This document shows positions 2,649 through 31,400 of a DNA stretch of 32,739 bases, in pieces. This stretch comes from Catajapyx aquilonaris (taxonomy: Eukaryota). Under the pieces are notes generated by a model. That model had not been told where the DNA came from and did no database searches. It worked only from the letters and a program-made list of their open reading frames with translations. How positions within the stretch are numbered: the first letter of the stretch is position 1; each line of letters starts with the position of its first letter. Location of the stretch: the NCBI GenBank assembly GCA_000934665.2, contig KZ539121.1, positions 1 to 32,739 of the forward strand, given 5' to 3'. A program made the translations under genes and the position numbers.

Positions 2649-2658
2649 NNNNNNNNNN
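2649..2658. other. Assembly gap (10 N) next to a 22-nt poly-C tract
   Basis: Run of Ns. Single Ns also lie within C-runs at 5159, 11776 and 12713. Confidence 0.95.
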
Positions 2659-3854
2659 AAAAAAAAAGAGAGACAACGACCGGGGAATATCAAATGAGCC
2701 TGGTTCTTCGTCCTGGCACACTTCCTCTGAAATGAACAGCCCCAACCCCTCACATTAATTCGATTACAACTCGTCAAAATAATCCTGGTTAGTACACTAG
2801 TATGGTTTCATCAAAATGGACGGGAGTAGACCTGGTCCGCACTTTGTGGTTTGTTAGAGATATATTTTCATTGTTTAAAACAACAATAACAATGCTTGTA
2901 ACCTGAAGAGTACACTCATTTCTGCAGGCAACTGATTTTCCCCCCCTGATATCATTGTGTTTGCAAACAAATGGTTTTTTTTTTTACCAATCGTGTAATA
3001 ATGCATTTTGTGGCCATGTCATCACAAGGGAAGGTTTTTCCCAGTGCTTGTCAAGCTTGTTCCGCCCGAGATTGTATTTTTTGTAAATAATTTTTTTTGT
3101 GTGTGTGTTTTTGCGCGGGGACCGGATTTCAGGAGAAGTCATTAGAGGCAAAGTACCAAGCAGATCTTCCCAGAAGTTTATTTGCGGAGCTCTCATGTCT
3201 TTCGTATATATTCAAATGTCGGGGGCCCAGAAAATTTCCAACTGAATTCCCCAGTGCTGGAAGACGACGTGACGGATATGAATAAATCGCTGGCGGCAGA
3301 GAGAATGAAAAAAAGAGAAGACATTGTTACATTAAGAACATACTGTACGACGTTTCCGGTTGAAATAATACGCATGAATTTGATATGGCAGAAACTTGCG
3401 ATATTTTTTTAAAAAATCTGCTTAACTATATGACTATAACGCCGGTTCTCTATACAGTATATGCACAAATGATACATTATTAGTAATCGTGTTAGTCATT
3501 TGTTCATCAAAAATCTTTTGTTAAATTATACCAAAATTATTCAGGCACATCTCGCGTACAGTTCAGTAATTTTTTACAGTACATATTATTCAAGCCGTTA
3601 TGTTTAACACTCACTAGAAAACCCTCGATTCGCTCGAATTTTTCTAGACCGTTGCTGTATTTACCTTCCACCCGACAGCATGGAAATGAATAGTGTTTCC
3701 TCCCACCCACCAGAGGCGCTGTCTTACCCTGCGCGCGTCGTATCTCCTCCCCTTGCGCAGTCGCAGAACGGGGGCCAATCAGAAGCATCGGTCAAACATC
3801 ACAATGATTTTAATAGTATAGATGATGTGTACTATCTACAAATAGCTCATTCAT

Positions 3855-3945
3855 AGTAAGGTGAAGTGGGGGAAGTGCACACCCGGGGTAAGTGCACATA
3901 TTGTGCACTTACCCCGGGTGTGCACTTCCCCCACTTCACCTTACT
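3855..3945. mobile_element. Perfect palindrome (44-bp arms, 3-nt loop), probably an internally collapsed TA-targeting MITE
   Basis: 3855-3898 AGTAAGGTGAAGTGGGGGAAGTGCACACCCGGGGTAAGTGCACA is the exact reverse complement of 3902-3945. TA dinucleotides at 3857-3858 and 3942-3943 flank an 83-bp core. Confidence 0.75.
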
Positions 3946-6900: not shown

Positions 6901-8700
6901 TGGGTCACTCTGTATGTCGACAGGATTTGGCCATTGAGATGACCAGCAGGGGAGGGCAGCCAAGGACGAAAGAATCTGGCACCAAAAATCGCAGAGAGGA
7001 TTTTTTAGTAGGTTATATGGGGAAGCTGCAATCAATGTTATTATTCCGAGAGAGCCGAAGGTTTCTAAATGGATGGGAGTAGTTTTGCGCCTCAAGAGTT
7101 GCGGAACTGGAGGACGTTTTGTGGTCAAACCAACGTCAGTTATTACTTTCAAGGCGAGACTTAATGGGGACGGTAAAGTTGTGTTTAATGGGCAAGGCCT
7201 TTCAAGCAGAGAGGTTATCGCTTTGGTCTTTAACTGTTAACAAGTCTAACAGTATATGCTGGGAACGATGCACAGCTGAGATTTGTCCTGTGTAGATATT
7301 CGCAATACAAAAAAAAAAATTAATTGCGAAGTACCTTTTTAACAATATGGCATCCCTTCAAATAGGGTCTGACAATTATTGTTTATTAAGAGTATTAAAT
7401 GTCAGTTTTAATCACAACTTTTTGTCATCGCCTCCTATGTACAAAAATTCAAATTAAACTCTTGAGAATTTCATTGCTGTCCTACATATAGGACATCATT
7501 GTCCTTATCCAAAAAAATCAGGCCCACATCTAGAGTGAGCAGGTGTTTTCAATGCTCCTCGTGTCCGTTCATTACTTGCGAATCTTCCGGGCGACATTAC
7601 GGCCAAATCGTTTGCTTTATATGCCGAAAACAGGGCTTTTCCAGAGAGGGCCAACCTTATCTGAAAACTACGGGGAGGGTTTCTCCTTGATCCGGTGTAC
7701 AAGGGAAGTGTAGGCTGCAGCCTTGCCAGGAATTGGAGACGACGATTTTCCTCCACTTCTCGTCTCCGGATGTCTTGGGAAGTGAGTCTGATTTAGCCTG
7801 CACTAAAGGCGGACGCGATACGGAATTGAATTGCCCCAAGCATAGTACACCAAGAGCTATATATATACATGTATATCCAGGAGCAAAACGCCTTTCAGTC
7901 ATAACTTGTGCCAAAATGTTGCCGGAATTTTCCAACCAAGCGCAAAAAAAAAAATCTATATAATGTAGATTTACACGGCCATTTTTGCCACAATAACATC
8001 ACAAGACGGGTAAACACAACCAAAGAAATATCGCAAAAAAAAAATGTGGTCGGAACAAACCATATTTTTCTAAAACAAAGCGTGTTCAGCATAACATAAT
8101 TTAATTATTTATTTATTAACAATAAGTGGGCCTCTTCGGCAATCAACAGGTTTCAAGCGATATTTTGCAAGACTGAAACTTTGTGCCCCAAATATTAATA
8201 TTTTAATAACCTGTTAAAAATATTGGTAGCAGCATGGAGTTAATTGGGTTATTAAACTATATAGCGAAATCGCAGCATTGTTACGGGCGTCAAATCAAAG
8301 TGTCGAGCTTCATGACAATGTGTTAATCAACAAAAGCCAGTACTTATACAACGCAGTGATTCGTGATTTATTTCGCATCCCGCATTATTGGCGACAATTC
8401 AATTCACCACCGGTCCCACCCAATGAATCTCGACACACATTTTAAATAATTTTTTCCCCCTCCCACACCAACCCAGCTGACTATTAATTGATATTCAAAT
8501 TCATTTTAATCAATGTTTGTCAGTTCAATTCCGCTCTGATCCACAACATATTCACTCTCGGTACACTCATGCTCCACATTTAAATCAGGTTCCACATACA
8601 CTTGTGATGCTTCACGCAGTCACGGGACGTCAATATTGCAATCACTGTTCACATCAAACGCAATATACCGTTTAAACGACGCTTCTCTGTGTCGGATCTA

Positions 8701-8746
8701 CAGGGTGTGTCATAACGAGTCCACCCTTAAATTACGACACACCCTG
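8701..8746. mobile_element. 46-bp Tc1/mariner-type miniature relic
   Basis: TA-CAGGGTGTGTCATAA ... TTACGACACACCCTG, a 15-bp inverted repeat with one mismatch. CAGGGTG is a common mariner-like terminus. Confidence 0.55.
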
Positions 8747-11398
8747 TTACGAGCTTGCTCCTCACTAACGATTATTGCCAGGCATTAAAATGACCCACAG
8801 CGTTGACCACACGACTCGGAAACGCTCGTAAAACGGTCAACAAAACAGACATATAACGACTAAATAAGGTCCAAGCTTATAATAGAATATGAAGGAATTA
8901 CTGCCACACTTTTTGTCGCATTGACCATATGAATATATATAACCACGTAAATGTCTTCAAGTTGATATTTAGCACTGTCAGCTTAATATGTGCCTCGGGG
9001 ATACCTTTCCCTTTATATTGACACAGCAGCGACACACATCATTCCTTCAAAGAGACTTCATCTAAGAGCAAACTAGACAGTTTGGTCCCTTCCCTCTCCC
9101 AAAATGTTCCCCTGGAATTAGAGGAGCCAAAGTGCTTCAAAGGGAGAAGTTTGACTAACCAATCTGGAGGATTCCTAGACCAGGTTTTTGTTAGAGTCCA
9201 AGTGGTCGTGAGGAATCCTCATTGACGACTTTGCTCATAGGGAGTCGAGTCAAGAAGGAAGGATCTCAGGTGTCGACTGTCCCTGTCCGGCACTCAGACC
9301 CAACTTTATTTCTTCCTAAGGGAATTACCCCCACACGGATGATGGCTGCTTGACTCCAAAAGGGCCTCACTTTGCTCCTTAATTAAAAATGGAGGAACAG
9401 TGGACAAAAAAAAGGGCAACCGTAACGATTCCGACCTACTAGTGAACCCGTTGCCAATTTGGCAGCATAGTAATAATAAAATGGCCCGCCGATTTACCAC
9501 ATAGTAATATTCTTCGTGCGTAGATGGCGCACACTGTCTGCACACTCCTGCCACCGTGTGAGAGATAGCGATACTTGGTCGGACAAACATCCGACGGAGA
9601 GAATAAGCCTATTAGGCACACACTTCATCCGTTATTACAAATTCCAACAACATTACGTTAATGGCCCAATTGGAGTGAAAATTGAACACAAATTGAAACT
9701 GAAACTGTAGATCTCTAAAGCACTGGAGTATACACTTGAAACAGCACTAGGAAAGTTTTCAGGTATTGACTGCTTGAGAGAAGAAGCGAGGGGGAAAGCA
9801 ATCGAGGAAACTCTTCAATTCTGGGGGAAATTCCATTACCTTCACTTGGCAATTTAATATTATCGTTACACACTTGGCTTGTGAACAGTATTGGAAAAGC
9901 TAATATCAGATTTTATTGCTTTTACCTAATGTTGCGTTTCTGCTAGGAAAATAGCCTAAAATTGCTTTAAAATGTGTGAACAATGTAAAAATATATATAT
10001 ATGTTCTTTACTTTAAATATAATTAACTGACAGCTTCCCAGCAATAACTCACCCTGTCATTATGATTACCGGACTTTATTGAGCGACCATTTATATGTAT
10101 ATGAAATTTGGGCGATTATAATTTATAGCGCTCCTATTCAACCGACTCGCCCATTTGTTTCATAGAATTCATGTTGCCCTGTGTACGTGTGTGTAGAGAC
10201 CTGACAGTCAATTAACTATGAGTGAATGGTTTTCTCCCCAACGATATATATTTTTAATATATATAACCTCTAAAATTCACTATACTCAATAGCCATTTAT
10301 TCCGCATAATCCTGATGACTGCAACCTATGTGATAGCACACATTGTATCACATTTATTATCTCATCAACAACCCTATTAATTATCAAGCTATTGCAATGC
10401 TACGATCGACACTTGCTGCTGCTAATTACACAAGTCATACGTTTCAAGTACGTGTTTCAAAAAACAAAATACGTCAGCAACTTACGCACTATACAAAAAC
10501 TTGTAAACGACCAATGTTTTTCATTCCGTACTCGTAACTTTTGCGTCGCACTTCCGACCTCCATATGATTTACGTTCATGTCAGATGTAAGTACTTAGGG
10601 GAGAAGGTTAGATGGGGGGTACCAAGCATAAAATTAGCAACTCCACCCACCCCCAACACACGTCATCATCTGCACACGATCCATATCATTCTTGCGCTAA
10701 AATATCCCAAAATTTTCTTACACACAAATTGGGTCTCGAATTGTTGGAGCCACGTGCTCAGTGTTGCGGCTGAATCAACAAGCCATTTGTCTCCCTTTTT
10801 TTTCGGCGCCGAAGCCACTGTTCCGAATCGATTGTTGGCCTTTTTTTTTTCTAACAGGATAGAAGGAATAGGTCCTTATTCACACCCTGGCAAACATTGA
10901 AGAAACGAGCTTCCTTGAAAACTTTACAATCTGGGTCACCAAACTTCCCCCCCCCCCAAAAAAAAATTGAGTGTAACAATTTTTAAAAAGTCAAACGCTG
11001 ATTAAATGTATGTAATCTGAGAATAATTGTAAGCTTCATTGTTGTCTGTCACGGATTTATGCAATGCATGAGCGGATTGCAAGTGAGGCATAATATGGAC
11101 AAATAAGAAGAGTTCAATGCTATTCCCGTGCAATTCCTGTATGTGTCATACGGCCATTCTTTGGCGTGACAATGGTACGACACACAAGCACGCAACAATT
11201 TTTATTTGTAAAGTCAGAAATGGTGTGTCATAATTTTATCTTAACCCTGCAATTTTTTTTTTCTCCAAACAATCGCACGGATGGAAGCACTGAATATTGG
11301 ATTGCTTGTAGTGATAATTACTCACACATCAAGTGGCAGTAAAATTATATAATCGAGGATTCATGTTGTAATTTAAAAGATAATTTTCACTTCATTAA

Positions 11399-11813
11399 CA
11401 GGGGGGGCGGATCAATATATGTATTTCCCCCCCAGAATAATAATTGTTCTCCATTAAAATGCATGGCATTTTCACCTACAATTATGCAATTACCCTTACT
11501 CGCTGGTGGTGGCCGTAAATTTATACCCCCGAACAGGCCGCGCAATTTTCAAAAAAAAAATGCAGAAAAATCAGCTTGAATTTTTAGGCGCATTTTGCAA
11601 TTTTTGCATATATGACGTCGCAAATAAATTTTTATGCAAATATCCATTTATTGCATTGTTGGTTCGCTTCGTTTGAATTGGACCAATCTGTACGACACAT
11701 TTGTTTGAACCCACATAAAAAAATGTTCAGGCAAAAACCATAACAATACAGTGCTCTCCGAGAAATGCCCCCCCCNCCCCCCTCCAAAAATAACAACCCG
11801 GATCCATCCCTAG
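11399..11813. mobile_element. Possible degenerate hAT-like MITE
   Basis: CAGGGGGGGCGGATC at the left end and a poly-C tract followed by GGATCCATCCCTAG at the right end resemble CAGGGGCGGATCC-type termini. No target duplication seen. Confidence 0.25.
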
Positions 11814-13217
11814 TTATAAGCTTTTCCTTCAATACACGTTGTTGTCCCCCCAAATAGCCCAAATCTAACCCAATGATTTACGAACCGGACTAAAAACTTG
11901 GGGAGGCCAAGTCCGCCCCCAAATTTTTATATACCATCCCGGATAATCCCCCTCCAAAAAAAAATTATTTTTTTTGGTCCCCCTTCAAGTTTATATGTTT
12001 CCGCATTTTTTTTTGTCTCTCTCTCAGTTTTTAAGACCGCAATATATCACCTTTCAATTGTGCGGACCGTCTCTTTGAAACCCAGTTCCTACTTTAGCAC
12101 AATCTAAAAAAGCTCTTTCATAGCCCCCTCTCCCCTATCCCTTCCAAAAAAAGGAAGAAAAAAAAATGCACTTGGAACCGGAAAATTTTTACGAGTAATA
12201 AAAAGGTTGTGTTGCGAATATCTTTTCTCTCTTTTTCCCTGAGCTCTCTCTCTACAGGTTACGACCACAACGTCTGACGCGTTTATAATACTAGGGTTCG
12301 CATAACCGAAAAAAGAAAAGAAAGCCATTTCCACAGTGGACTAAAAGTTATTGCCGTTTGGTCCAGAGCGGCCTGTAATCTTCACCTCCGACCATGTCCT
12401 AAAAATCTACGCACTTAAATTTATATTTTTTGTAGAGTACAAGAAATGTTATGGGTTGCGTTCCGGACATTCTGATTCACCCGGTATAGTCAGCCTAGAA
12501 AATGAAGTGTACAAAACAAAACCCACAGAGCATCAGTTAATTGACAACCGTAAACAACCAGGCCGATACAAAAGAAAAAAGCCTCAGCAAATGATGAGGT
12601 TCTCGGTGGATCCAAAACCGTAACACCGACCGACTGCTAACAATAGAGGCGCAACTGCAATCAGTCTCTACCATAACTTGACCGCAACAACAGCTCTGAT
12701 TATGAGGACCCCNCCCCATTGATCCAGCATGCGATTGTTTGGCCCGTCAGTTACCAAATTAACTTTTAGGCCAGTTTTTTTGGGGGGGTGGACCCAACAA
12801 ACAGAAAAACACACGTACAGCGGTTGTTGGCTGCAATCATGCAAATGACATCCCAATGAAACAATTGCCGGTTTTTTTCTCCCCACACAATTCGAGTGGA
12901 TGTTGCTTGTTTGCACTCGTGTCGTCATTTTTCAACAGATGACCTGGGGGTAGAGGATTCCATTGTTACCTAGGACAATCCATCACCCGCCCAAAGCGAA
13001 ATGCAAATTGTCGGTCAATTAATATATTTCACTCAACAGGAGCTGTTCAGCCCCCTTTTTAATAAAATGTTAATACAAAATGTAGTAAAAGATGTTCGTT
13101 ACGCAACAGTGCCTTTTTTTTTTTTGACATGGCAGTTTACAAATTATGGTCACCATTGTTGCACGCAGCTTCCCTCTCTGAGTATTCATCTGTAGAGAAT
13201 AGAATCACAGCATACTT

Positions 13218-13223
13218 TTTATT
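13218..13223 (-). terminator. Candidate AATAAA polyadenylation signal of ASK1 (3' UTR about 1.15 kb)
   Basis: TTTATT on the plus strand, downstream of the ASK1 stop at the end of an AT-rich stretch. Other signals are possible. Confidence 0.35.
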
Positions 13224-14360
13224 ATTGCAGCCTTTTGAGTTAACAACACCTTCCGGTTAGTAATACTCTCTCCTATTAAATGCAGCTACAATAATATGTA
13301 CAGTAAGAAGCACTTGAAATTATTATTATTTTTTTTGTACAGAGTTAGTTGTATAAGTCTTGTTTAGTTTGCATAGATAAGATTACAACATTTAAAATGT
13401 CAACTATCTACAATCAATAATTTCTGCATTTGTTCGCAGAAGTGTTACGATATTATTATGCCGTTGTTTCGAAATGCTAATGAAAGCATTGCTTCTAAAA
13501 CTACAGTAAACTATCAACTTCAACACATGTAAACAACAATAACTCTTTTTCCACAAAATATTCCGCATTTACACATCTAAAAACACCCCTACTTAGTTTT
13601 TTTAAAAAAAACAAGCACACACTTAGCAATATAATTACATCGTCGCCAAACTTGACATTGTCCAGCAATTGTCTTTCCTAATAAAAAAATTGGCAGTTTT
13701 AAATAACTTATCCCTATAGTCAACAGTTAGTGTTATAAGGCACAAGAGACGGAGAAGGCAATAATCTAACGTTACCTGCTAGCAATATTGTTACAAAAGC
13801 ATTTTTAAAATCCAAGCCATAAAATTTTCACACCCCCCCCCCAGAATCAATCTTTAGATTTAAATTCAGCAGCACCTGACATGTCGTTAAGAAGCAAACA
13901 GAGCAAGTCAAAAACATCACATATTTTAACAATTTTTAAATAAATGTGCCCCCATCCAGGTTCGGCAATAGAACTTGGGTACTGATGTCACAGCCTTTAA
14001 TTTATGAGGTATCCGAAATACCTCTTAGAACCCTTTTTGACCATAATGCGCTGTCCCTTCAAAAAGAAGACAGCAATCCAATTGGATTTTGACTTGCTCT
14101 GTAAATGAGGCCTACGTCCATATTTACAATGCGTCCAAGTCTCAATACTTAACAACCAAAGAACCTTCAGATAGTAACATTACTGCAAAACAACGTTAGC
14201 ACACAACTCCAATAAAATCAGACGGTAATTGGCATTTCTTCCATGGCACAAAAAAATTAACGGCACAACCTGTGACTGGCAAAACAGCCACACATTGCAC
14301 GAAAAGGCACATTTAGTTAAAATTAAATTTGAGAAGCAGAAATAGAAAGGGAGACGAAGG

Positions 14361-17300
14361 CTACAGGTTTGTCGATCCCGAAGCAGCCTCCTCGGACCCT
14401 TGCCTTGTGTTGGGTCCTCTCCTCTCCTGACGATACCTCAAAATTGCTCTCCACACACGAAGCTCAATTCCACCCCTGCAAAGACGGTGAGCGTCATATA
14501 AAGAAGGTGGCACTGAATGTTTAAAAAAAAAATCCAGTTACTTACCTGAGACCCAATCTGCAGAGATCTTCCTTCCCTATGTAATGTAGCAGATCATCTA
14601 AGCTGTACTCTTCCATCACAAACTGGAATAAAAGTCATGCTCGAAACGTGCCGCAGCATTCTATGAGTAAATGCAGACTTACCCTTTGGATAGAGTGCTT
14701 GTCCAGTCCAAGATTCTCCAGCCATTCCATCATGGCAACGTCGCATCCTTCCGACACGTTTATTCTGATGTGCGGTGGCGCAGTGGCGGATTCTCCATCC
14801 CCACCGCAGCCAACAGGACTCTGGACACCTTGCTCCATCTGGAGGCTTCCACTCGACGCCTGAGAGCTAAACCTGAAGCAACGCTCGAGTTGCTCAAATA
14901 AAACCATACGGAAACACGACTGCTTACCCAGTGTCCAGCCTGGGCCTCATCCCACTCCAGGTTCCCAAGCAAGACATCTGCTGGAGCATTTGCTGCATTG
15001 CTTGTACGTTATTCTTCTGCTCCTCCAGTGTACTTTTCAGGGACTCGTTGTACGCTTGCCTTGCCTCCGTGAGCTCCTGCATCAACCTCATCGTGAACGC
15101 CTTGAGAGATTCCACCTGTTCCTGCAGCTCTCTGTGCCACCCGCCTCGTGCAGAAGAGAAATTCTCCAGTCCGCCCTTCTGAGACTTCATCGAGTTCACC
15201 GTGGACAGGCCCGAGGAAGACCCTCCGTCTCCGCCCACCCCACTGCCCTGCTCACGATGGTCACGACCAGCCAAGTTTGCTGCCAGCTCTAGTTCGGAGT
15301 TTAAAATTTGCATTGTCACACTATTCTATGTCCTTGGAATCAGACATGACTGACCTGGCGAAAGGATGGTGATTGCCGCATGTACCGAGCTGCGCACCAG
15401 GCTGTCCAGGGCAAACATCCAATGCGGTTTGATGCTATGCGAGCGAAGAACTGCATTCACCTAGAACGCATCAAAAACATTACAGGCAACTGCATCCAAT
15501 GGGAAGCCAGCTGTGCACAACTAACCGCATCTTGAAAGAGGTAGAGTGCAAGCTGGATATGGTTGATGGCAACACCGTCAAATTCAAGCTCCTCCTTCAG
15601 CTTGTGGATGGCCTGCTCCACCGCACTCTTATTCTGATCTGAGATGTACTCCTTGAGGCCATGCATCAGTGTGGTCAAATGTTCCTGTTGAAGATAACGA
15701 AAGCGACATATCATGTGGAGGCTGTGCCATAAAAAAAGTAATGCGTATAATGCACCGTAACATTAGGATTGTTCATAAGCTCTCGGGTCAGCCACACTGA
15801 GATTATTACGGGTACTGACCAGAGTGAGGACATTCTCCTCAACTCCCATCTCCAGGCTCTTGACCCACACCTCGCAGATCTTCGTCTCATCCTGTGTCAG
15901 CACCCTGGTGAGGGTCATCCTCCTCTGGGAGTCTTTCTTCAGGAGATAAAACCCATCGCACTCCAGCTCCCCTTTGGTTGAATCCACGTCAGGGGAGAGC
16001 AGGCCCCCTGAGGAGCTGCGGCGCGACATCAGAGTGTCATCGTAATCCGATCCAGTCGTCATCGAGCTGTCAAAAAAAGGCAAATAATCTTGTCAGGTTG
16101 GCCGCAGCACCGGTCATTCTCTGGCAGTTATATGGAATGGTCAAAATGTTTTCAAATGCCACGAATAAAACAGTGTAACATTAAACTGAAAAAATTCAGT
16201 ACTTCACATCTTGCTTGGCATAAATATCATGAGGAATTACAGGTTGAGAGAATCTATGGCCTGTAAACATGCATGTACTCACGCATTACATTTTTGCCTC
16301 GGCATAAGGCAAAGTGCCTCGACTCCTAAACTGTCTAAAACACACAGCTTCATAAGATGAAACAAGTCACTATACCCAGTAATCTAGTTGCCGATAACAT
16401 ATCAAGACTAGGAAGGCAAACAACGCCAGCTCATTTATGAACTAATTTAGGCTAAGGTAAGATAAGCACGTAATTACATACTGTACAGTGAAGCCTGCAT
16501 GAAACAGCAGAACTGTACCACAAAATTTTTCTATAATGAATAAGTTTCTTACTTCAGAATGATTTGAAAATCATCCAACAGGACCAAGCAGAGAAATTGT
16601 CCATTTGGTTTCCGATATATTCAATTTCAGGCAGATTTCACTGTATTTTCATAGTCACACAAAAATTCCCTTGAATGTTATCACATCTGAGTCACGAAAA
16701 GTTCACACGTACACACTGAAGTATCAAGAAAAAAGTTTTCGCTGGGCAACTGCCAGTAAAAATTCCACATTGATTAATATTTAAAGTGGCCCTGAGAAAA
16801 CATCAACAAGTAGACACAAATTACACCAGGCTCACCTGACAAACGAGAGAGCAGAGGGCATGCTGATGGGTGAAATAGGCGAGGCGCCCAGGCTGCTTAC
16901 AGGACTTGTTTTAGTATTGAAAGCACTGCAAAGAAGTAGAGAGAGAGAGAGAGGTAGAAACAGGGTACAAACAGGTGAGATAAAAACTGCATTGAGCCGA
17001 ACGCAGTGTGGCTTTACATGCGGTCACAAGCTTAAGTTAACTAGAAAACTCACCCATCGTCCGCAGAGGTGGCCAGCCGACTGTTGATGTGGTTGTTCTT
17101 TTCCGTCTTGACCGCCCGATCCGCAGGCACCGAGATGCTGCGGCTGAACTCCTGAGCAGTGGCCAAGCGGGCTACTTTCTTCTTCCGGCCAATTCTGTAT
17201 GAAATGGAAATCGCAATCAGCACCATCCGCAGTCAAGTGTCCATGTGGCTTATCCCGAAGCAAACAAGACATCAGTCTCTTATTTAAGCACCGGTACTAC

Positions 17301-20300
17301 ATGTACTTTACAGCCTCACGTCAATGCAAAACAAGCTGAAACAACTCACTCTGCCAGAAAGGTGTCCTCCAGCAACTCAGCCGAAGTCGCCCTCTGGTCC
17401 GGATCAGGTTCGAAACACCGCAGGATGAAGCCCCTAGCTTTCTCTGTCAGCTCCATCGGAATTTCCGGATGCATCTTGTAATATCCGACCTGGGAAAAAA
17501 TACCGTTTAAATTAAATGAGGACTGGATTTTTTTTTTTTAACTGTCATTTGAATGATTTATTTTAAAAGACCTGTTGAATGTCCTAAGCTAATTCACCAC
17601 ATACCTTGAACATGGCTGCTTGAGGAGAACCCAGCTCAATGAAAGGAGGTTTTCCGGTGGCCATCTCAACAATGGTGCATCCCAGTGACCAGATGTCGGC
17701 CTGGGAAGTACAACAAATCAATCAGTCCGCCTAGAAATACGGAAACGCACTACGATGATTCAAAACTGACCGGAGCTCCGTATCCCCTCTGCCCTTTGTC
17801 GATGACCTCAGGTGCCATGTACTGCAAGGTTCCTGTGAAGGTCTCGGTGCTAGGGCATATCCCTGCCAGCCTCTTGGATGTGCCGAAGTCAGATATCTTG
17901 ACCACTCCACTGTATGTGTTGACCAGCACGTTGTCACCTGGTCAAAACGAATGTCCTTAATCCTTTCCCTCAACGTCACAGACCTCATAAAATCATCCTA
18001 ATTATTCTGGTTGTACCACACCTTTTATGTCCCTGTGCACGATCTTCTGGTCATGAAGGTACTTGAGCCCCTCCAGGATCTGTTTGGTGTAATAAGCGAT
18101 TGTGGCCTCGTTCTCCTTCAGTGGCCCCCACTTCGACCTGAGTAAGGCGGAGAGGCTCCCTCCCGGCACCTGCTCCATGCAGATCTTGAAGAATCCATCC
18201 TCCGAGAGGGAGCCCAGGTACTGCACGATGTTCCGATGGCGCAGCTGGGAATGCAGCTTGATTTCCTCATGCAGGGGCTGGACCTCACCCAGGTTCTTCT
18301 CGGGGATCTCCTTCACTGCTATCCTCACCTGGGTGTTAAGGTCACGGGCTGCGTACACAACGCCGTACGTGCCTTTGCCCAGGACAATCCGTTTCTCTTG
18401 ATCATCCAGTTCGTACTCGTACTGAAAAACAAATTATCACTGTTAAGAAATCCATCATCAAATCTGAAACTTGCTATCTTACCCGTATCTGTTCGGAGGA
18501 GAGATCCGAGTCTAGTCCGGTGAATACGTTCCCCTGCTCAGCAGTCATCTCCAACACAAGATCGAAAAATCGCTGCCTGCACTGCACTGACGGAAAGAAC
18601 ATCTGGAAGTCATCTGAATTCTGGTGCACATACAGAAACAGGCACCGTTCATCCCTCTTGTACAAGCTGTGCAAGAAACGAAAATCATTGGCACATGTCT
18701 GCATTTAATACCACACACAAAAAAAGAGACATACCTCAGATTCTTGATCATGTCCGCCATGAAGAGCCACTCGTGGACTTGCCGACATGTTCCCTTGATG
18801 CTGTCCAGGCAGAGGTTCCAGATCTGAATCGACTTCTCCTCCGCTCCCATGTGCACATTCACGTAGCTTGGCATGTACACTTTTGTTGGCTCCAAGACCA
18901 GAATCTGCGATAAGCAAGAGGCAAATAGGGGTAATATGCCCGAGCGTCTTAAATTCCGTCAAATATTGTAAGTTTCAACATGTAGAGAAACGAATGTGGT
19001 TAACATATTGATCACATATCTTTATGAACTCATTGATGTAAGCTGAATCTTCCAAACGTTAGTCAACATGCCAACGTTTCAAACTCACAGGAAATCTGAT
19101 GCTGTCCCCAACTTCCAGTTTGGTTGCCTCCACAAAGTAGTCCATCCAGAAGCTAAATATCTGCTCCTCGGGAGACAACTCCGCGTCCTCGTTTCGCTTG
19201 CGGAAACGGTTTATCAAAGTGATGTTGCCAACGGTGGACTTCAGGTACCTGAAATTGCGAATACAACGTGTTCATCATAAAGGGTGTCGGCATATCTAGA
19301 ATGGCACAACTGTCAGGACAAGGTAAGAACAGGTCGGACCAGTCGGGTGGCTTGAGCTTGAACATGCACTCCGCAGCCTGAATGGTCTTTGAGTAGTCCT
19401 CCGCCAGCACGCTGATCTCAAAGAAGGTGGCTACGTCCCAGTAATCCTGCAAGGATGACAAGCTGCCCTTCTTGCCAATCAAGTTGTTCAATACCATGCC
19501 TGAAATACACGCCGTGCAATGATGCTGCTCATTTGCATAAGAAAAAATTCACCCTTCCTTACCAATGTGCTGGAGCTCCTCGGATTTGGAAAACTCGTTT
19601 CCCGCAATGACGAGAAGCGTCGCCAGGTTGATCCCTGCGTATTCATTGGGCTGCACCTCGAATCCTTTCCTGTACCAGTGGATGGCGTTCTTGAGACTGT
19701 CTGCGTCCGTGTGCTGCGACTCCACAAACTTGTCCTTGTAGATTCTCCCGCAAAGGCAGAGAATGTCAGGGACGTGGTTTTCTTTCTTCTCCAGGGCTTT
19801 CGTTATCACCTGAAGGGCACGTTCCCTGTCCCCTTCCTTGTTACGTCGATTCAAGGCAAAGGCATAAGAGTGACGGATGGCTGGAGTATTTATGTAGTTC
19901 TTCCGGTTAGGAATAGTCTTCAAGTCGTCCACCAGCTGGACCATTGCATCATAATCCTTTGAAAGCAAAGTGAGAGACACTTGATTACAAACAACAAATG
20001 CTTTCAATCGCGCACCTGTTTGCGATGTGAATTACGCACCTGGATCTCTCGGAATGAGATCAGCATGTTGAGTACGACATCTCCTGAGAGCACATTCGGA
20101 TCATCTAACCTCTTCCTCATGTTGTGAAGCACCTTGGCCAGCTCCTCCCCAGTGTACGTCTCCCTCGCTTTGCGCAAATCAGACATAAACTTCTCTTTCA
20201 TGTGAGCCCTGAAAATTAAACCCACTGTATATTAAGTTCTTAACAACAGGATTCACCTTATCGCCACACATTTTTAACGAGACATAACACTAAAGAAAGG

Positions 20301-22334
20301 CATCCTCACTTTGACTGTATCTCGACATCCTGAAGTAGCCTCTTCAGCTTCATCCCAAGCGGCTGCTGCTTTGTCTCGGCCATTCCCTCCTCTCCCTGGA
20401 CCCTGAGGGCGGCTGGATTGTTCACCACACAAGTCCCACAGTCCAGCACACGGTATGAGACGAACGTGTAGTTGCTACAGGACAGCTGCAAGGAAAATGA
20501 GCAGGATGCATCCAACCGATTTTCAGAGCCTGTGTTGCAAGGCCCCCCCAGTTCTTACATGCATGCCAAGCAGCCGTGGGAACTTCCACTTCCAATTTTT
20601 TTTTTTTAAGCTCCCACAAGCCGCACATGGCCTTCATACATCATATGGAGGGCTACACATGAGATCCTAATCTGCAGCTACCTGAATAAGCCAGGAAGCA
20701 ACGCGCTGTTGTGCATTGCACTCAAAACAGGCCCTAACAATGGCTGACAGCTTGTCATGACATCTCATGGACAACGAATGGCAAGTGCAATGACTGATGA
20801 CTGATGTGCAGGGAAAGTGTCACCAAGGTCAACCATGACAGCAAATAAACATTTCTAGTCAAAAGAAATGCCTACGATGTGTACATTATAATAACCGTTT
20901 TAACACAAACCAATTATCATAAGCAGTAATACACCTTAATGTATAATGTGAGTTCATTGTTACAGGTACGTATCGGGTGTTCAGGATTTTCTCCCTATTG
21001 AACAAAAGGCCATGGATCCTTTTCTGTTTACATTTAATGGTTCAGCTCGGTTCGGCCAAAAACACTATTAAAACAATACATCTTTTTGAGTGGATTTTAT
21101 ATGCCAAAAAGTCTATTTTTCGTGTTAATTGGACCACAAGGTCCTAACATGCAATGCACAACTAACCGAAAAGAAACATGTCCCAAACAGACACTGCATC
21201 TCAAACAAAAGTTATACGCAACGCAACGCTCTTTAACCCATGGAAACTTGTTTCGTACACATAAATTTCAAGGAACGAGAATGAAGCAAACTCCACTACA
21301 TGCCATATCTCTTTCATTTCTAAATGCGACCTTCTTATCCGCCAGCAAATTGCGGCTGCACACTTTTCATTCATAATCTTAATTCCTGTAACCGGCTGAG
21401 CCAGACAGGGTGAGCTCATCTGCAGATAAACTGAGTTTGGAAATCTCAACAACGACATAATAAACATTAACAACATTAATATATTGCACATCCTGATTAA
21501 ACCCTACTAAACGGGGCTAATATTTGCAGTGACATCAACATTACTTAAATTACAATTCGAACAATTAGACATTAACGTATTTGACACCCCCATTTCAGCA
21601 GATCATATTCATGAAGAGCGTACTTTTGCATATAAGACGCATTTGAGCTATTTTTACACGCTTTTTTAGGGTGAAGAGTGCGTCTTAAATGCCGTCTAAT
21701 GCTGTAATTCCCTTCCTGCTTTACCATGCATCTCGGCGCATATGCTGCGGTACGTGAAGGGGTAAATGTATGATTACCTTGAGCGGTAGAGTAACTTCCG
21801 TATCATGGTCGTTGTAGATGAGAATATTCTCCTTCATCCCAAAGCTCTCCCTGACACCCAGGTGGTAAAACAGCGCGCTCTGCTGTAGCTGTACGGACAA
21901 ATCCACCACAGCCACATCCGCATTATAAAAGGTGTCCAGCACGTTCGCCTCCCCAAAATCCAGCTTCTCAAACTGCACATGATGACAATGCGACCCGACC
22001 AGGAGGCAAGCCTGCCTCACCTCCTCCAGCGCCTTCCGTCTCTGCGCCGACGACTCCGACTGCGTACACAGGTCGATCACAACCGCAATGTCCATATGCG
22101 GCCGTGCAGAGGACGACGTAGTCGAGGATGGTCCTGCGCCCATAGCTGCATTTGCAACGGTAGTGCCCGACGTGTCGCTCCGACTCCCAACGCTGTCAGT
22201 CGCACTCCGGGACGACTCACCTGCTGGGAAATAATGGGTCAGTCGCATCCGTACAATAAGTATAATGTACCATTTATACATTACGTACAAACCAAATGGA
22301 GCGTACCTTCAGCATCCGGATTCAGGTTTGGCAT
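14361..22334 (-). CDS. ASK1: Apoptosis signal-regulating kinase (MAP3K5/MAP3K15 family MAPKKK), about 1390 aa, 22 coding exons
   Basis: Exons in transcript order: 22334-22307, 22220-21778, 20485-20310, 20208-20040, 19956-19563, 19499-19340, 19248-19089, 18904-18735, 18666-18483, 18421-18022, 17937-17771, 17700-17605, 17489-17350, 17194-17054, 16925-16836, 16066-15820, 15684-15526, 15460-15355, 15288-14928, 14872-14683, 14622-14546, 14475-14361 (TAG). All introns are GT-AG and the phases sum to 4173 nt. ASK-family motifs: [52 protein letters not shown], kinase [10 protein letters not shown] / AVKEI / HRDIKGDN / [10 protein letters not shown] / [23 protein letters not shown], coiled coil, and C-terminal SAM ([15 protein letters not shown]). 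Confidence 0.96.
16486..16643. mobile_element. 158-bp pogo/Tigger-like MITE in an ASK1 intron
   Basis: TA-CAGTGAAGCCTGCATGAAA ... TTTCAGGCAGATTTCACTG-TA, 18/21 inverted match including the TA target duplications at 16484-16485 and 16644-16645. Confidence 0.65.
21628..21706. mobile_element. Degenerate short inverted-repeat element in ASK1 intron
   Basis: GCATATAAGACGCA (21628-21641) versus TGCGTCTTAAATGC (21679-21692), 13/14 inverted match, ending in CTGTA. It resembles Tc/pogo-type MITE subterminal sequence. Confidence 0.4.
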
Positions 22335-22447
22335 CTTCAGCCGCCCGTTACTCACACCTTCAGTCTTCGCATCTCCTTCTGCAAATACAAGTACTTAGAG
22401 CTGCTGTACTTAGAGTACTTTCTATATGATCTATTTAATCAGCTCAC

Positions 22448-22530
22448 CTTTTTTTTCTATGGCTTCAACAGACAGCAAAAAAAAATTTTAATATTTTTTT
22501 TTGTTCTATTTCCTGGATTCCATTCCTATC
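22448..22530 (-). other. ASK1: Putative non-coding first (5'-UTR) exon of ASK1
   Basis: The ATG-containing exon has a strong acceptor (tacttgtatttgcag, exon begins 22378). An AAG|GTGAGC donor lies at 22447, giving a 69-nt intron. An in-frame TAA at 22490-22488 with no ATG after it makes the exon non-coding. The 5' boundary is approximate. Confidence 0.6.
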
Positions 22531-22992
22531 TATGCAGTGTTGCCAACTGCAACTGGGAGATTAATATGATTAGCATTAAAACCAGGTTTTATATCAGCTA
22601 AAACCACATTATTAAATAACCACAGCTCCATATTATAAAAAGTTAATGTTAAATGCATTTATTTTAAATGATATATTTTTGAAGGCCAGATGCTGTGATT
22701 GGCCAGTTTGATGCAACATGCCAAATTAGATGTGCCTTTTTATTGGCAAGGCTGTGCAAGTTTGCTATTGCAAAAATTCGCAAAAATTGGTACATTTTAA
22801 TTGTTTTTAGTTTTAAGTTTTATGTAAAATATTAGCCCAATAGGTTTAACCAACACTTAAGAGATAACACTTGCAGCACATATAGACGGTTAGCGTATAA
22901 CAGCCCAGTTAAAGTGTGTTGCGTTATCAGATTTATTTATTATGTTAATGATTTATTAATTATGTTAATGATTTTGTTAATTAATGTTGCAG
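22531..22992. promoter_or_regulatory. Shared divergent (bidirectional) promoter region of ASK1 and MyD88
   Basis: Short AT-rich spacer between two divergent genes. It contains CAGTGTTGCCA (22535-22545), ATTGG boxes at 22698, 22742 and 22786, and CCAAT at 22837. Confidence 0.7.
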
Positions 22993-23011
22993 AGTGTATG
23001 CTTATGAGACG

Positions 23012-24616
23012 ATGGATGATGTTAATGGACGCAAAGGAGGGGAAGACTTTGCAGCCGTCCCGGTGCGAGCAATGCGGACATCCGCTTGTAGGAAGATGTC
23101 CAGTATGCTCAACGTGACCAAGGTCATCCCGACCAGAGAAGGACTCTTCAGGTACAGAGTAAGCCCTGTACTGCAAAATTGATAGCCTCTAATTGTCGTC
23201 GCACTTGTTACAGAGACTGGCGAGGATTGGCCGAGCTGCTGGATCTCGATTCAGGAACGATTCAAATATTGGAAAGCAAGTCTGATCCGACTGCGGAAAT
23301 GTTGTCGCTTTGGCCCAAAACTGGGACGTTTCATGACTTGACTGTCCATCTAGCCAGGTTGGACCGATATGACATTGCAGATGATATCTGGGACTATCTA
23401 GGTAATCACAGGACAAAATTAGTTCATAAATTTAATGATTTGAACAGTGGTGAGTATTCAAAGACCATGACGGCGACAATAGCAAACCAATGCTATTGTT
23501 AAAAAATTTCTTGGCTCATACAAATCTCTGTAAAATGCAAAAATGTCTTATGATGTCACATAGTAGCTAATATTGTATATTTCCACAGTGCAAGACTCCG
23601 AGTCGTACTTGAAGAAGAGGGAGGACGTTCATGACCCACAGTTGATAAGCGGTGAGGTAGATTCAACTGTGCTGACGATTGGTGACTCGGCCAGGTTGGG
23701 GCAGGGACTGGCCGTTGAACGATATGATGCCTTCCTCTTGTATGCTGAAGATGACACAGACTTTGCGATGGAGATGGTTCGCAAGATGGAAGATGAATAT
23801 GGGATGAAATTGTGCCTCCGGGATCGTGACCTAGTCGGAGGGCTGCCTTTCGAACATGATGCGATTGCAAAACTCATAGAAGAACGGTGCAATCGGCTGG
23901 TCGTTATATTCTCACCTGCCTTCATCGAGAGTAAAGCTAATCAATTTGTGCTCATGTTTGCTCAAGCTCTTGGAATAGGTAACATCAGCGCTTTACCTCA
24001 TTTTACGTCATGACTAAAGAGTGACACGAATTATTTCAGAGCAACGTCAGCGTAAGATCATCCCATGCATTTACAAGCACTGCGACCTCCCTGCCACAAT
24101 CCGTTGTGCTTTCTGTCTCGACTATACCCGATCAGGAAAGTTGTGGAACTTTTGGGAGCGGCTGCGAGACTCACTACAAGCTCAGCCCAAAGCAATCAGG
24201 TTCGGCCAACACATTTTCTCACCTACGCTGTGTGATTCAGAATAATAGCTCTGAAGGCAAATGCATCGATATATTACAGATCCAATTTGGTGGTGGAAAA
24301 TAAGGAATCCCAGATACATCAACTGACCCACAGCATGGAAGTGAAGAAACCCGAAGCGACCGCAACCAAGGAGAAGGTTCGATCCATTAGTCTTGGATGC
24401 AAGTCCGCAGCGCAGGTGACAAAACGGGAGCACAGTCACTCCGATTCAGGCGTCTGCTCTGAACCAAGCACGACCAACACGAATGGCGAAATGTCCAAAA
24501 GCACCAGCAGCGACCTCGGAAGTCCTGTTCCCTTAACTTCATGGTTCAAGCGCCTTCTTCCCAAGCCAGGGAACAGGTACAGGAAAGTGTCTCACAGCAA
24601 ATTGCTGGCCGAATGA
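23012..24616 (+). CDS. MyD88: Toll/TLR adaptor MyD88 (death domain + TIR domain + C-terminal extension), 404 aa, 5 exons
   Basis: Exons 23012-23151, 23214-23401, 23589-23978, 24040-24199, 24280-24616 (TGA), 1215 nt in frame. Death domain RDWRGLAELL..LARLDRYDIADD, linker VLTIGD, TIR box 1 YDAFLLY, box 2 LCLRDRDLVGGLPFEH, IEERCNRLVVIFSPAF, RKIIPC, FWERL. A ttgcag acceptor at 22992 implies an upstream UTR exon. Confidence 0.95.
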
Positions 24617-25151
24617 TGTGGCATATCCTGATTCGTATCGTCCAATTATTTCCTCTCTTGTACATACCTGTGATATTGTCATTCCACATCTCAAAAAAAG
24701 AGAGAAATGTTCTTTGTGATTTTAAAAATGTATTTTATTGAAATATATTCTATTCTTCATGCAAATTTTTGTTTGGATTTATTGGTACTTGTACAATATT
24801 TTGCTGTAGTTCAGTTAATTGCACAACAAAAATGTTTTTTACTGCCTCACCTGGATGACAGAAGTACAACTCCGCGTACAATATTTAAATTAATTTCATC
24901 TGAATTTTTTTTTTTAAAACACAGCATCACAGCCTGCAACACTGAATTATTATCATCTGCGGTGGTGAATTATTATTAATTATTATGGGTAGTTGAATTG
25001 CGCCTCAGTCGCTGAATTTTCATCTGTGTGAATTAATTAATATTATAATATAGATAATATAACAATACTGCAATATAATTATATAATATATAACGGATTA
25101 TGCCGTGATGTATGTATGTATGTATGTATTATATGTATATTTATATTAAGC

Positions 25152-25167
25152 AATAAAAATCAATAAA
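25152..25167 (+). terminator. Candidate tandem AATAAA polyadenylation signals of MyD88
   Basis: AATAAA at 25152 and 25162, downstream of the MyD88 stop and upstream of SFT2. Confidence 0.4.
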
Positions 25168-25755
25168 TCATTTCCTGACTCTGAATCATAATGAATAAGT
25201 ACTTCAATGAGTAAATTCAAATCGGCGCCGTAGCAGTGTTGCCAATCCTTTCAATGATACCAGTATGTTTCTATTAATTATTTTAATTAATGCCTAACCG
25301 TACAAATGACACAACATAAATTCCTAGATCATAATTTCGCAATTAAAAAAGTCTGCTAAAATAAAGTTAAACGTCACGTGAACTCACAATACAATATATT
25401 TGACACGTCCTTTAATTTCGCCGCCAAATCACGCCCCCCCTTTAAATTTCAAGCCAATTAAACCTAATTTAACTTAACTATTATGCTGAAATATCCGGTT
25501 TTTAATTACTCTTACCTGGAAGTACAATCTGGACATTTGCACAATTATTTAATTTTTTTTTTTTTTTTTGCACAGGACGTGGTCAAAATTTTGGCAGTGA
25601 AGTTAATTTAGCGCCATCTCCTCCTCGTTCACTTGTTGCTTCTTCAACCGGACCTGTCTCTTAGTGTCCGGGACATCAATCTTTCTTTGGTCTTTAATTG
25701 ACCTGCCCTAACAACCGGGACAGAAGAAGAAGAACCCCCTCCCGAGGGCACTCAG

Positions 25756-27182
<1,427 letters not shown>

Positions 27183-27668
27183 TTACCATTGCATTTATGT
27201 TCCCTATTTATGTAAACTGTCCCCGCCCCACATCTGTAATAATAACAATACAATGTTTATAGGGCCTTTACTTACAAAGCAATGCACATGTGCTCAGAGA
27301 GTCAAGCAATTCACTGTAACATGATAGCCGTCCAGTTATGAACCAGGTCTGGCACGAGAAAAAATAAGTCATTGAAAGCTCAGGCATTGATCTTCCATTT
27401 TCTCATTATTTTTCTAATCATGTACCTATCGCATGTGCTTAGGAGCACTCCTTGTAAGTATGTGACATGACGTGTAAAGAAAAGGCAAATCCAGTGACAA
27501 TAATGAAACTACAGAGAATGACATGTGACAATATATTTTTCCTGTTGCATGTGCGGTAAATAAATAAATATGTAAGCATCCACCCACGTGTTTTTATTCA
27601 GGACTGTTAGTTTTATTGAATGGATTTCATTTATTTAAATCCATTAATCAACTTGTAGAAAAAAGTAT

Positions 27669-29861: not shown

Positions 29862-30370
29862 AATAGATTGCTCAAAAAGAATTCTCATTTTCAACAGTGT
29901 ACATCAAATATGGATATGGCAATCGGGAATATGCACATTTTAAAATATACTCACACTATACTGTAGGCAAGTTTACTGAGCTCTACCTAGTCTTGTCTGG
30001 CTGAAGGAGAACACCTTGAGGTTCAAAAAGCTGATGCTTTATAGTATACTTTACCACTAATTTTAGATAGTCCTGATTCATTGTAAAAAGTTTAATCCTC
30101 AGTCCATTGCATCTGCGTGAGAATAATATGATGGTCGTCTCTGAAATCATGACACGGACGGGATATTATCACAGCAATTAGACCAGTAATCTCAATATAA
30201 AGAGGCATAATATTTCTTCAAAGTTGTCCTTTGTTTCCAGAATTGCGTTGCACACTTCATCCCCTGACGTATGTAGGAATCAATGTCATCATAATACTGA
30301 GGGTGGTAATTTTTTTTCATCATTCCAGCATTGTTATATCCAACTGTAAGGTTTCGACATTACTGGACCA
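29862..30370. repeat. Copy 1 of a diverged direct duplication (about 500 bp) upstream of the DHDDS-like gene
   Basis: Colinear blocks shared with 30909-31400: GATTGCTCAA.AAGAATT, CACATTTTAAAATA, GATAGTC.TGATTCATTGTA, CTCAGTCCATTGCA, TCTCTGAAA, TCTCAATATAAA.AGGCATAATATT, TTTCGACATTACTGG. Confidence 0.85.
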
Positions 30371-30908: not shown

Positions 30909-31400
30909 AATGGATTGCTCAATAAGAATTCAACAGTGCACAAAATATGGCAATAGGAAATGTACACATTTTAAAATACTCCTCACACTAGTCAAGTCTG
31001 TTGCACCCTGCCGATTCTTGTCAGTCTGAAGAACTTTAGCTCAAGAAGCTGTTGCCTTAGAGTACTGTACCACTGATTTGTGATAGTCGTGATTCATTGT
31101 AGACAGTTTTATTCTCAGTCCATTGCACCAGAGCTAGAATATGCTGGTCATCTCTGAAAATAATCATAACACTGGCTGGATGTTAATACAATAAGATCAG
31201 TATTTCTCAATATAAAAAGGCATAATATTGCTTTACAGAGTTGTGTTTTGCTTCAGATTTGCTTCTCAGGTATACATTATTACAGATTGCATGCCCTAGT
31301 ATATGTAGCGATCAATCTCATCGCAATATTGCAGGCGATAATTTTTGTTGCATCGTACCAATATTGTTAGCCAACTATGGGTTTTCGACATTACTGGCCA
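30909..31400. repeat. Copy 2 of the diverged direct duplication
   Basis: Same ordered blocks as 29862-30370, offset by about 1.03-1.05 kb with many small indels. Confidence 0.85.

Follow-up and report, generated by a model that had tools for sequence, protein, structure and literature searches.

A divergent ASK1/MyD88 gene pair with a short, CpG-free core between the genes in Catajapyx aquilonaris

The window analyzed here, the whole 32,739-nucleotide stretch of contig KZ539121.1 (Catajapyx aquilonaris assembly GCA_000934665.2), carries an ASK1 gene on its minus strand and a MyD88 gene on its plus strand (Table 1). The ASK1 product has DRHyd-ASK, MAP3K_TRAF_bd, TPR-S, Pkinase, and HisK-N-like domains (Pfam) in the order of the ASK-family MAP3Ks (MAP3K5/6/15), lies close to proteins named ASK1, and is 76%–88% identical to 30 homologs over up to 859 alignment columns. 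The gene is intact: 13 exons from 22334 to 17350, joined by GT-AG splicing, give 895 codons without a stop, and the 3′ exons beyond 17350 are positioned by tblastn alone, down to 14367. In the ASK1 tree, this gene branches outside every sampled winged insect. The MyD88 product has an N-terminal Death domain followed by a TIR domain, its top matches are named MyD88, and its start codon has a strong context. In the MyD88 tree (126 rows, after leaving out those not spanning Death to TIR), the protein adjoins an Orchesella protein with a support of 0.92, which we consider weak. A fused neighbor was looked for in seven long MyD88 database entries, none of which contains an ASK domain. Searches of the animal's own genome gave, for each of the two genes, at least one strong match among the matches listed, within the window.

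Table 1. Features of the ASK1/MyD88 locus (window coordinates)
Feature	Position	Strand	Evidence
ASK1 / MAP3K5-MAP3K15-type kinase coding span	14361..22334	-	Pfam; 13 spliced exons; tblastn for 3′ exons; stop from sequence
ASK1 start-codon exon (44 nt leader + 28 nt coding)	22307..22378	-	Donor 22306, acceptor 22379; homolog N-termini
Predicted ASK1 5′-UTR intron, 69 nt	22379..22447	-	Top-scoring minus-strand donor and acceptor of the gap
Predicted ASK1 noncoding first exon (5′ end 22534 guessed)	22448..22534	-	Inferred from donor 22447
Core between leaders (≤311 bp, 31% G+C, CpG-free), likely shared promoter region	22449..22759		Geometry and composition
TGGCAACACTG motif, fits DMv2 / Ohler 8 (TGGYAACR)	22535..22545	-	Consensus match; genome abundance
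CCAAT-box-like site (GGCCAATCA)	22696..22704	-	Reached in 5.6% of shuffles
MyD88 noncoding first exon, contig-visible part	22760..22789	+	One X1 contig; true start may be further left
MyD88 5′-UTR intron, 203 nt	22790..22992	+	Spliced contig joint
MyD88 coding span (404 aa; Death, TIR, C-terminal tail)	23012..24616	+	Pfam; intron joints; open frame
MyD88 coding exons	23012-23151, 23214-23401, 23589-23978, 24040-24199, 24280-24616	+	Four introns, all seen as contig joints

The two genes are adjacent on opposite strands with facing 5′ ends, and their start codons (22334-22332 on the minus strand and 23012-23014 on the plus strand) are 677 bp apart. The gene identities and the head-to-head layout proposed in the initial annotation are borne out by the Pfam domains, the start codons, and the open spliced frames: ASK1 and MyD88 are a genuine divergent gene pair. 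The annotation had also suggested a further 5′-UTR exon for each gene. For MyD88 this exon is seen in one X1 contig, spliced from 22788 to 22992 (a GT..AG joint at depth 6 whose shorter flank is 29 letters); X1 comes without a library record, and we treat it as transcript-derived because its contigs skip seven GT..AG introns. For ASK1 the exon is a prediction from splice-site scores: the best minus-strand sites in the gap are the donor at 22447 (9.5 bits) and the acceptor at 22379 (8.8 bits), scored with matrices for which ASK1 and MyD88 themselves supplied 18 donors and 17 acceptors as training sites. Within 19400-27600, X1 contigs cover ASK1 only at 19647-19918, and the predicted UTR intron lies outside this segment. 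We take 22334 as the true ASK1 start because several insect homologs open with the same Met-Pro and a short leader. The predicted first exon contains a five-codon upstream ORF and an in-frame stop, and the ASK1 protein would therefore end its N-terminal reach at 22334. Since no in-frame stop interrupts the 44-nt leader, we also considered an upstream coding extension of ASK1 and a MyD88 gene nested inside an ASK1 intron; in-frame upstream stops and the matching homolog starts rule out both.

From the predicted ASK1 leader to the MyD88 leader seen in one contig, the distance is at most 311 bp. The short upstream region common to both genes that had been claimed for the locus is thus upheld, at ∼310 bp or less between the leaders, and with start codons 677 bp apart, the predicted start sites would lie within 1 kb of each other. 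This core is likely a promoter region for both genes, judging from its position and composition. It contains no CpG, where 7.6 are expected. The upstream region of SFT2 has 14, and 27 other sites of the motif described below have a median of 14 and a minimum of two, which makes the core atypical as a promoter of this genome. At the ASK1 5′ end (21501-22500), the CpG observed/expected ratio is 0.94–1.1 versus 0.41–0.82 within the gene, and a ratio near 1 is what is expected of sequence beside a promoter. Acceptor-like sites without use occur in the core at 22597 and 22684 on the plus strand and at 22553 and 22693 on the minus strand.

The gap holds one clear motif, which is abundant in the genome. 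TGGCAACACTG fits TGGYAACR, the Drosophila promoter motif DMv2 / Ohler 8 (PMC1779564, Table 1), and may act as a promoter motif here also. The 11-mer was matched in one of 1000 shuffles, for a motif picked after it had been seen; its 12-mer form has 1,311 matches in the genome versus 11 for a reversed control. A second copy lies at 25234, ahead of SFT2. Thirty motif loci were drawn and three overlapping ones removed; with the top five ORFs per locus considered, seven of the remaining 27 are Pfam-positive (the gene pointing away in five of the seven), compared with four of 20 control loci (two of the four). A literature search with the letters of the motif returned primer matches only. We graded a second site, GGCCAATCA, as weak because 5.6% of shuffles match it; it resembles a CCAAT box. 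Scanning the gap with consensus response-element patterns gave no match to five kB patterns or to the AP-1, CRE, STAT, HSE, and DRE consensus, and ARE and GATA matches were no more numerous than in shuffles; the immune or stress elements expected of a co-regulated pair were not found in the gap with these patterns. The TATA consensus is also absent from the gap.

A short head-to-head gap is in itself nothing unusual (PMC2670823, PMC3483549). In Drosophila melanogaster, pairs <1 kb apart account for 31.6% of genes, mostly at 200–400 bp; these pairs are TATA-less and poorly conserved among insects, and they exceed random pairs in co-expression and functional likeness (PMC2670823). Head-to-head pairs make up 8%–18% of genes in other eukaryotes, including insects (PMC3483549). 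The ASK1/MyD88 pair resembles the fly pairs (Yang and Yu 2009, PMC2670823) in its opposite strands, in starts that are probably <1 kb apart and in the 200–400 bp class, in its AT-richness and lack of a TATA consensus, in joining broadly used genes, and in poor conservation of the pairing; unlike them, its host is not a fly and its start sites are predicted. The available tables of that study contain neither Myd88 nor Ask1 symbols, and control symbols are equally absent, so they are uninformative on this pair. In mouse, Myd88 shares a promoter with Acaa1a, and the two show mutual positive cis-regulation (PMC13564825). There too MyD88 stands head-to-head with a protein-coding gene, promoter sharing being probable in our case; however, the mouse partner is a fatty-acid thiolase and not ASK1, and cis-activation was tested in mouse. 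The partner of MyD88 thus varies by lineage.

We looked for the pair in 23 other arthropod species, using contig separation and accession distance as proxies for adjacency, with assemblies that may differ within a species. In 15 species, spanning Odonata, Blattodea, Phasmatodea, Hymenoptera, and Malacostraca, ASK1 and MyD88 are on different contigs. In three Timema species, their accessions are 4,103–7,790 apart. In five Schistocerca species, both genes are on one chromosome of 1.2–1.3 Gb, with accessions 443–15,137 apart; on a chromosome of this size, co-location can be chance. In Macrobrachium, they are on different chromosomes. Fragmented assemblies (Ladona, Blattella, and Meganyctiphanes) are among those compared, and two of the MyD88 entries are labeled "MyD88-like". 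By these proxies, adjacency is not conserved in distant lineages. Absence of the linkage in other species, one of the two observations that the initial annotation had named as refuting its reading, holds outright in 15 species and probably in three more, none a close relative. From springtails, diplurans, bristletails, myriapods, and chelicerates, the two genes could not be recovered together; for Orchesella we found MyD88 but no matching ASK1. Ten MyD88 loci were recovered from 310 pattern matches in metagenomes; none has an ASK1 match nearby, with our own window as positive control. Only one of them (L037) has a long upstream flank, 6.2 kb without an ASK1 match, in which ORFs have Pfam matches below threshold only. 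Of the others, L035, L036, and L043 extend <500 bp upstream, L038–L042 stop short of the 5′ end, and L034 looks like a transcript without flanks. Rows for MyD88 or ASK1 occur neither in two of the three supplement files of PMC4987106 nor in PMC6938034.

Since none of the other arthropods checked shows this arrangement, a chance neighborhood is the most likely origin. We consider it probable that the divergent pair is specific to this lineage, uses a general-purpose promoter, arose by chance, and has no shared immune switch. A rearrangement within this animal's lineage would most likely have created the pairing, and both genes probably start in one short AT-rich open region of ∼200–310 bp with a widespread housekeeping-type motif of the TATA-less kind. 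From this region, recruited polymerase would fire in both directions, and loose co-expression of ASK1 and MyD88 may therefore arise as a by-product. Nothing was found in favor of an infection- or stress-specific switch, and both proteins are signaling components controlled mainly post-translationally. Immune- or stress-themed pairs are expected by chance at 0.007–0.42 per genome, a rough figure under our own assumptions. Against the chance reading, the sampled relatives are distant, adjacency was read from proxies, Schistocerca has both genes on one chromosome, the core is CpG-free, and fly pairs are more co-expressed and more alike in function than random pairs. On the chance reading, the pair is a further case of the known class of divergent pairs and of small consequence.

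Unlikely, in our view, is that the neighbors lack a common promoter: each would have an insulated core promoter of its own, or their 5′ ends would overlap, with one start located farther inside the partner's leader. Close fly pairs without co-expression, with an insulator between them, are frequent (PMC3483549). The geometry of such BEAF-32-insulated pairs (PMC3483549) is the same as here and illustrates that closeness does not imply co-regulation; unlike them, the ASK1/MyD88 gap has no DRE-type consensus. The atypical CpG-free core and its unused acceptor-like sites would fit separate promoters. Against them stand the room of only ∼310 bp, the promoter-like CpG ratio at the ASK1 5′ end, and the lack of a further strong donor in the gap.

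About equally improbable is a selected, lineage-restricted module, in which the common promoter couples MyD88 and ASK1 levels so that Toll input scales with p38/JNK output. The very short common upstream region, the mutual cis-regulation of mouse Myd88 and Acaa1a (PMC13564825), and the enrichment of fly pairs for similar function (PMC2670823) would agree with such a module, as would the mammalian pathway on which the initial annotation had drawn: a TLR4-TRAF6-ASK1-p38 link is indeed in print for mammals (PMC3376149, citing Matsuzawa 2005). Both gene families take part in that pathway; however, the link is at the protein level and shown in mammals, and the available text gives no tie to gene linkage or to arthropods (PMC3376149). 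A fly study assigns the two genes to different headings, systemic immunity for Myd88 and cellular stress responses for Ask1 (PMC9043853), and among the papers listed in our literature search none stood out for a MyD88-ASK1 link in arthropods. The gap is without inducible-element consensus, and at least 15 other arthropods do without the linkage. With the genes on different contigs in 15 other species, no immune or stress sites above chance, and an axis known from mammals, the co-regulated signaling module proposed for this locus is not supported.

We regard as more doubtful still that an early-branching hexapod hard-wires MyD88 to ASK1 through a CpG-free promoter of ∼300 bp, kept in wingless hexapods and jointly induced. 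If true, this would be genomic evidence for a mammal-like Toll-ASK1-p38 branch in the insect ancestor, uncoupled in winged insects; a pair kept in wingless hexapods and co-induced would offer a direct test of an ancestral arthropod Toll-to-ASK1-p38 route resembling that of TLR4. Least credible is an old microsyntenic pair that winged insects and malacostracans lost, while this genome, rearranging slowly, retained it: the branching of this animal outside the winged insects in the ASK1 tree and the shared chromosome in Schistocerca agree with it, but the pair would have to be lost independently at least twice (in winged insects and in Macrobrachium), the five Schistocerca species count as one event, and mouse Myd88 has another partner (PMC13564825).

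For annotation, the locus gives a corrected MyD88 model and leader introns for both genes, that of ASK1 being predicted. If one general-purpose promoter serves the pair, as is probable, editing either promoter would affect both genes. The MyD88 5′-UTR intron also contains a 20-bp tandem repeat, at 22930-22988.

The window spans an entire contig of an animal assembly of 285.6 Mb, and its right half holds four genes by Pfam domain search (see table). As the initial annotation had it, the ASK-family MAP3K gene (ASK1) and MyD88, the Toll/TLR adaptor gene, lie head-to-head, their start codons 677 bp apart. For ASK1, 13 exons between 22334 and 17350, joined at GT-AG, give 895 stop-free codons, and their product is 76-88% identical to 30 homologues. 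Its start is sound because several insect homologues share the Met-Pro beginning (and the short leader) and in-frame stops lie upstream. MyD88 has 404 residues in five coding exons. Each of its four introns is matched by a splice joint in the contigs of one public run, which skip seven GT..AG introns; both SFT2/Got1 introns are likewise seen there. Searches of the animal's own genome give at least one strong match each for ASK1 and MyD88. Retention of one MyD88 intron would introduce a stop shortly past the TIR domain and leave the protein without its C-terminal tail; only the spliced form is seen in the contigs of the run. At the end of this tail is a basic patch, which we take to resemble the membrane-lipid-binding tail of fly MyD88.

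A further 5'-UTR exon had been proposed for each gene. That of MyD88 is now transcript-supported, by one contig of low depth, from a run without a library record; since this contig carries 29 letters upstream of its GT..AG joint, the MyD88 transcript reaches at least 22760. That of ASK1, whose 5' end is without transcript coverage, stands as a prediction: the best minus-strand donor and acceptor of the gap between the start codons (22335-23011) score like ASK1's own splice sites. With one leader taken from the contig and the other predicted, the distance between them is no more than 311 bp. The predicted ASK1 leader contains two upstream ORFs, each with a purine at -3, which could damp ASK1 translation. 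On the MyD88 side, a 39-codon frame that overlaps MyD88 opens at two upstream ATGs, both out of frame and in weak context.

Features of the window (forward-strand numbering)
Feature	Position	Strand	Basis or detail
ASK-family kinase	start codon 22334; exons to 17350	minus	domain match
MyD88	start codon 23012	plus	domain match
SFT2/Got1 gene	25616-27529 (first base of its contig at 25616)	plus	domain match and contigs
cis-prenyltransferase	right half of window	minus	domain match
MyD88 leader joint	22788 to 22992	plus	one contig
ASK1 leader intron	donor 22447, acceptor 22379	minus	predicted, 69 nt
ASK1 upstream ORFs	22372 and 22523	minus	6 and 5 codons
MyD88 upstream ATGs	22998 and 23004	plus	14 and 8 nt before start
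TGGCAACACTG, first copy	22535-22545
TGGCAACACTG, second copy	25234-25244
CCAAT-like site	22696-22704
CpG-free stretch	22370-22778		about 410 bp
MyD88 intron, stop if retained	24200-24279	plus	contigs
Tandem repeats, first SFT2 intron	26060-26183; 26380-26567
Direct duplication	29870-30260 and 30915-31290		about 390 bp

The shared region is AT-rich (32% G+C). Scanned with consensus patterns against 1,000 shuffles, the gap contains no match to five NF-kB patterns or to AP-1, CRE, STAT, heat-shock, DRE or STATAAA; ARE and GATA matches are at chance level, and the CCAAT-like site is weak (reached by 5.6% of shuffles). The one clear element is TGGCAACACTG, which matches the fly motif DMv2 / Ohler 8 (PMC1779564, Table 1). 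Its second copy lies about 370 bp before the SFT2/Got1 contig, and the genome contains 1,311 copies of it as a 12-mer, compared with 11 of the reversed control, which marks it as a general element rather than one specific to ASK1/MyD88. In a comparison aimed at whether the motif could mark gene starts, Pfam matches occur at seven of 27 motif loci and four of 20 control loci, with the gene pointing away from the centre in five of the seven and two of the four. At locus L032 (G000:C40:58666-61677) the motif lies between a divergent O-methyltransferase gene and an RNase P Rpp21-type gene, head-to-head.

The region also holds the sole CpG-free stretch of its size in the contig, noticed after the fact. 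Its 311-bp core (22449-22759) has no CpG, against 7.6 expected; zero-CpG windows of 311 bp number two of 623 in the contig, overlapping at one place, and five of 1,065 in controls. The median is 14 CpGs at 27 other motif sites, and the SFT2 upstream region is, in contrast, CpG-rich. The stretch does not fit a typical promoter.

Linkage elsewhere was judged by proxy, from accession distance and the size of the contig bearing each named protein, in 23 species with both proteins found, none a close relative of Catajapyx aquilonaris. The genes are on different contigs in 15: Periplaneta (two assemblies), Blattella, Bacillus, Ischnura, Hetaerina, Ladona, Orussus, Neodiprion, Microplitis, Bombus pascuorum, Lasioglossum, Megalopta, Augochlora, Macrobrachium and Meganyctiphanes. 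The accessions are 4,103-7,790 apart in three Timema species and 443-15,137 apart in five Schistocerca species, where both genes share one 1.2-1.3 Gb chromosome and this distance suggests that they are far apart. Fly Myd88 and Ask1 are on different chromosomes, as are human MYD88 and MAP3K5. In a metagenome contig (L037), whose MyD88 is closest to hymenopteran MyD88, no ASK1 occurs in the 6.2 kb upstream; opposite-strand ORFs there (L037:2182-5859, sub-threshold DUF1487 match) are possibly a different head-to-head partner. Three database MyD88 entries carry extra parts (P0342, a syntaxin/SNARE tail; P0137, an unassigned tail; P0127, a tandem double MyD88) and are probably fused gene models of neighbours. 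The absence of adjacency by this proxy in most species, and of above-chance immune or stress consensus sites in the gap, argues against the co-regulated Toll/stress-MAPK module first proposed.

It is instead probable that a rearrangement in this lineage made ASK1 and MyD88 neighbours and that transcription of both now begins inside a single short open region carrying a general-purpose motif; loose co-expression would be a likely by-product, and an immune-specific switch is not indicated. Immune- or stress-themed pairs are expected by chance at 0.007-0.42 per genome, on the assumption that 8-32% of genes are in pairs and that 50-200 out of 15,000 belong to immune or stress signalling; some will therefore turn up when many genomes are scanned. 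Divergent pairs <1 kb hold 31.6% of D. melanogaster genes, mostly 200-400 bp apart, TATA-less and housekeeping-type, and are less conserved than vertebrate ones (PMC2670823); figures for other eukaryotes including insects are 8-18% (PMC3483549). Selected, lineage-specific coupling of the two genes is unlikely. Fly divergent pairs exceed random pairs in co-expression and functional likeness (PMC2670823), and many close head-to-head pairs are without co-expression (PMC3483549). The TLR4-TRAF6-ASK1-p38 link is mammalian (PMC3376149), and a fly study assigns Myd88 and Ask1 to different arms (PMC9043853). As unlikely as selected coupling are separate or overlapping promoters. Mouse Myd88 and Acaa1a have a common promoter, and transcription of each raises the other's (PMC13564825); MyD88 is thus already known head-to-head, but with an unrelated partner, Acaa1a, where here it is ASK1. 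Among the open-access matches listed, none describes ASK1-MyD88 linkage. A pair conserved among wingless hexapods and induced together is slightly less likely than either of the two alternatives above, and the least probable reading is an ancient pair that survived here but was broken up in other lineages. In the ASK1 tree, the window's ASK1 falls outside all sampled winged insects (that clade bootstrap 100) and inside Daphnia plus malacostracans (support 99), which probably places the animal among the early-branching hexapods or close to them.

None of 15 ORFs tried in 1-13500 has a Pfam match, and that part is probably non-coding or intronic. The direct duplication upstream of the cis-prenyltransferase gene is diverged (83% mean column identity), with no Pfam domains found nearby. 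The first SFT2 intron holds two tandem repeats, the first with a 57-bp unit in 2.2 copies and the second with a 20-bp unit in 9.4 copies, 97% alike.
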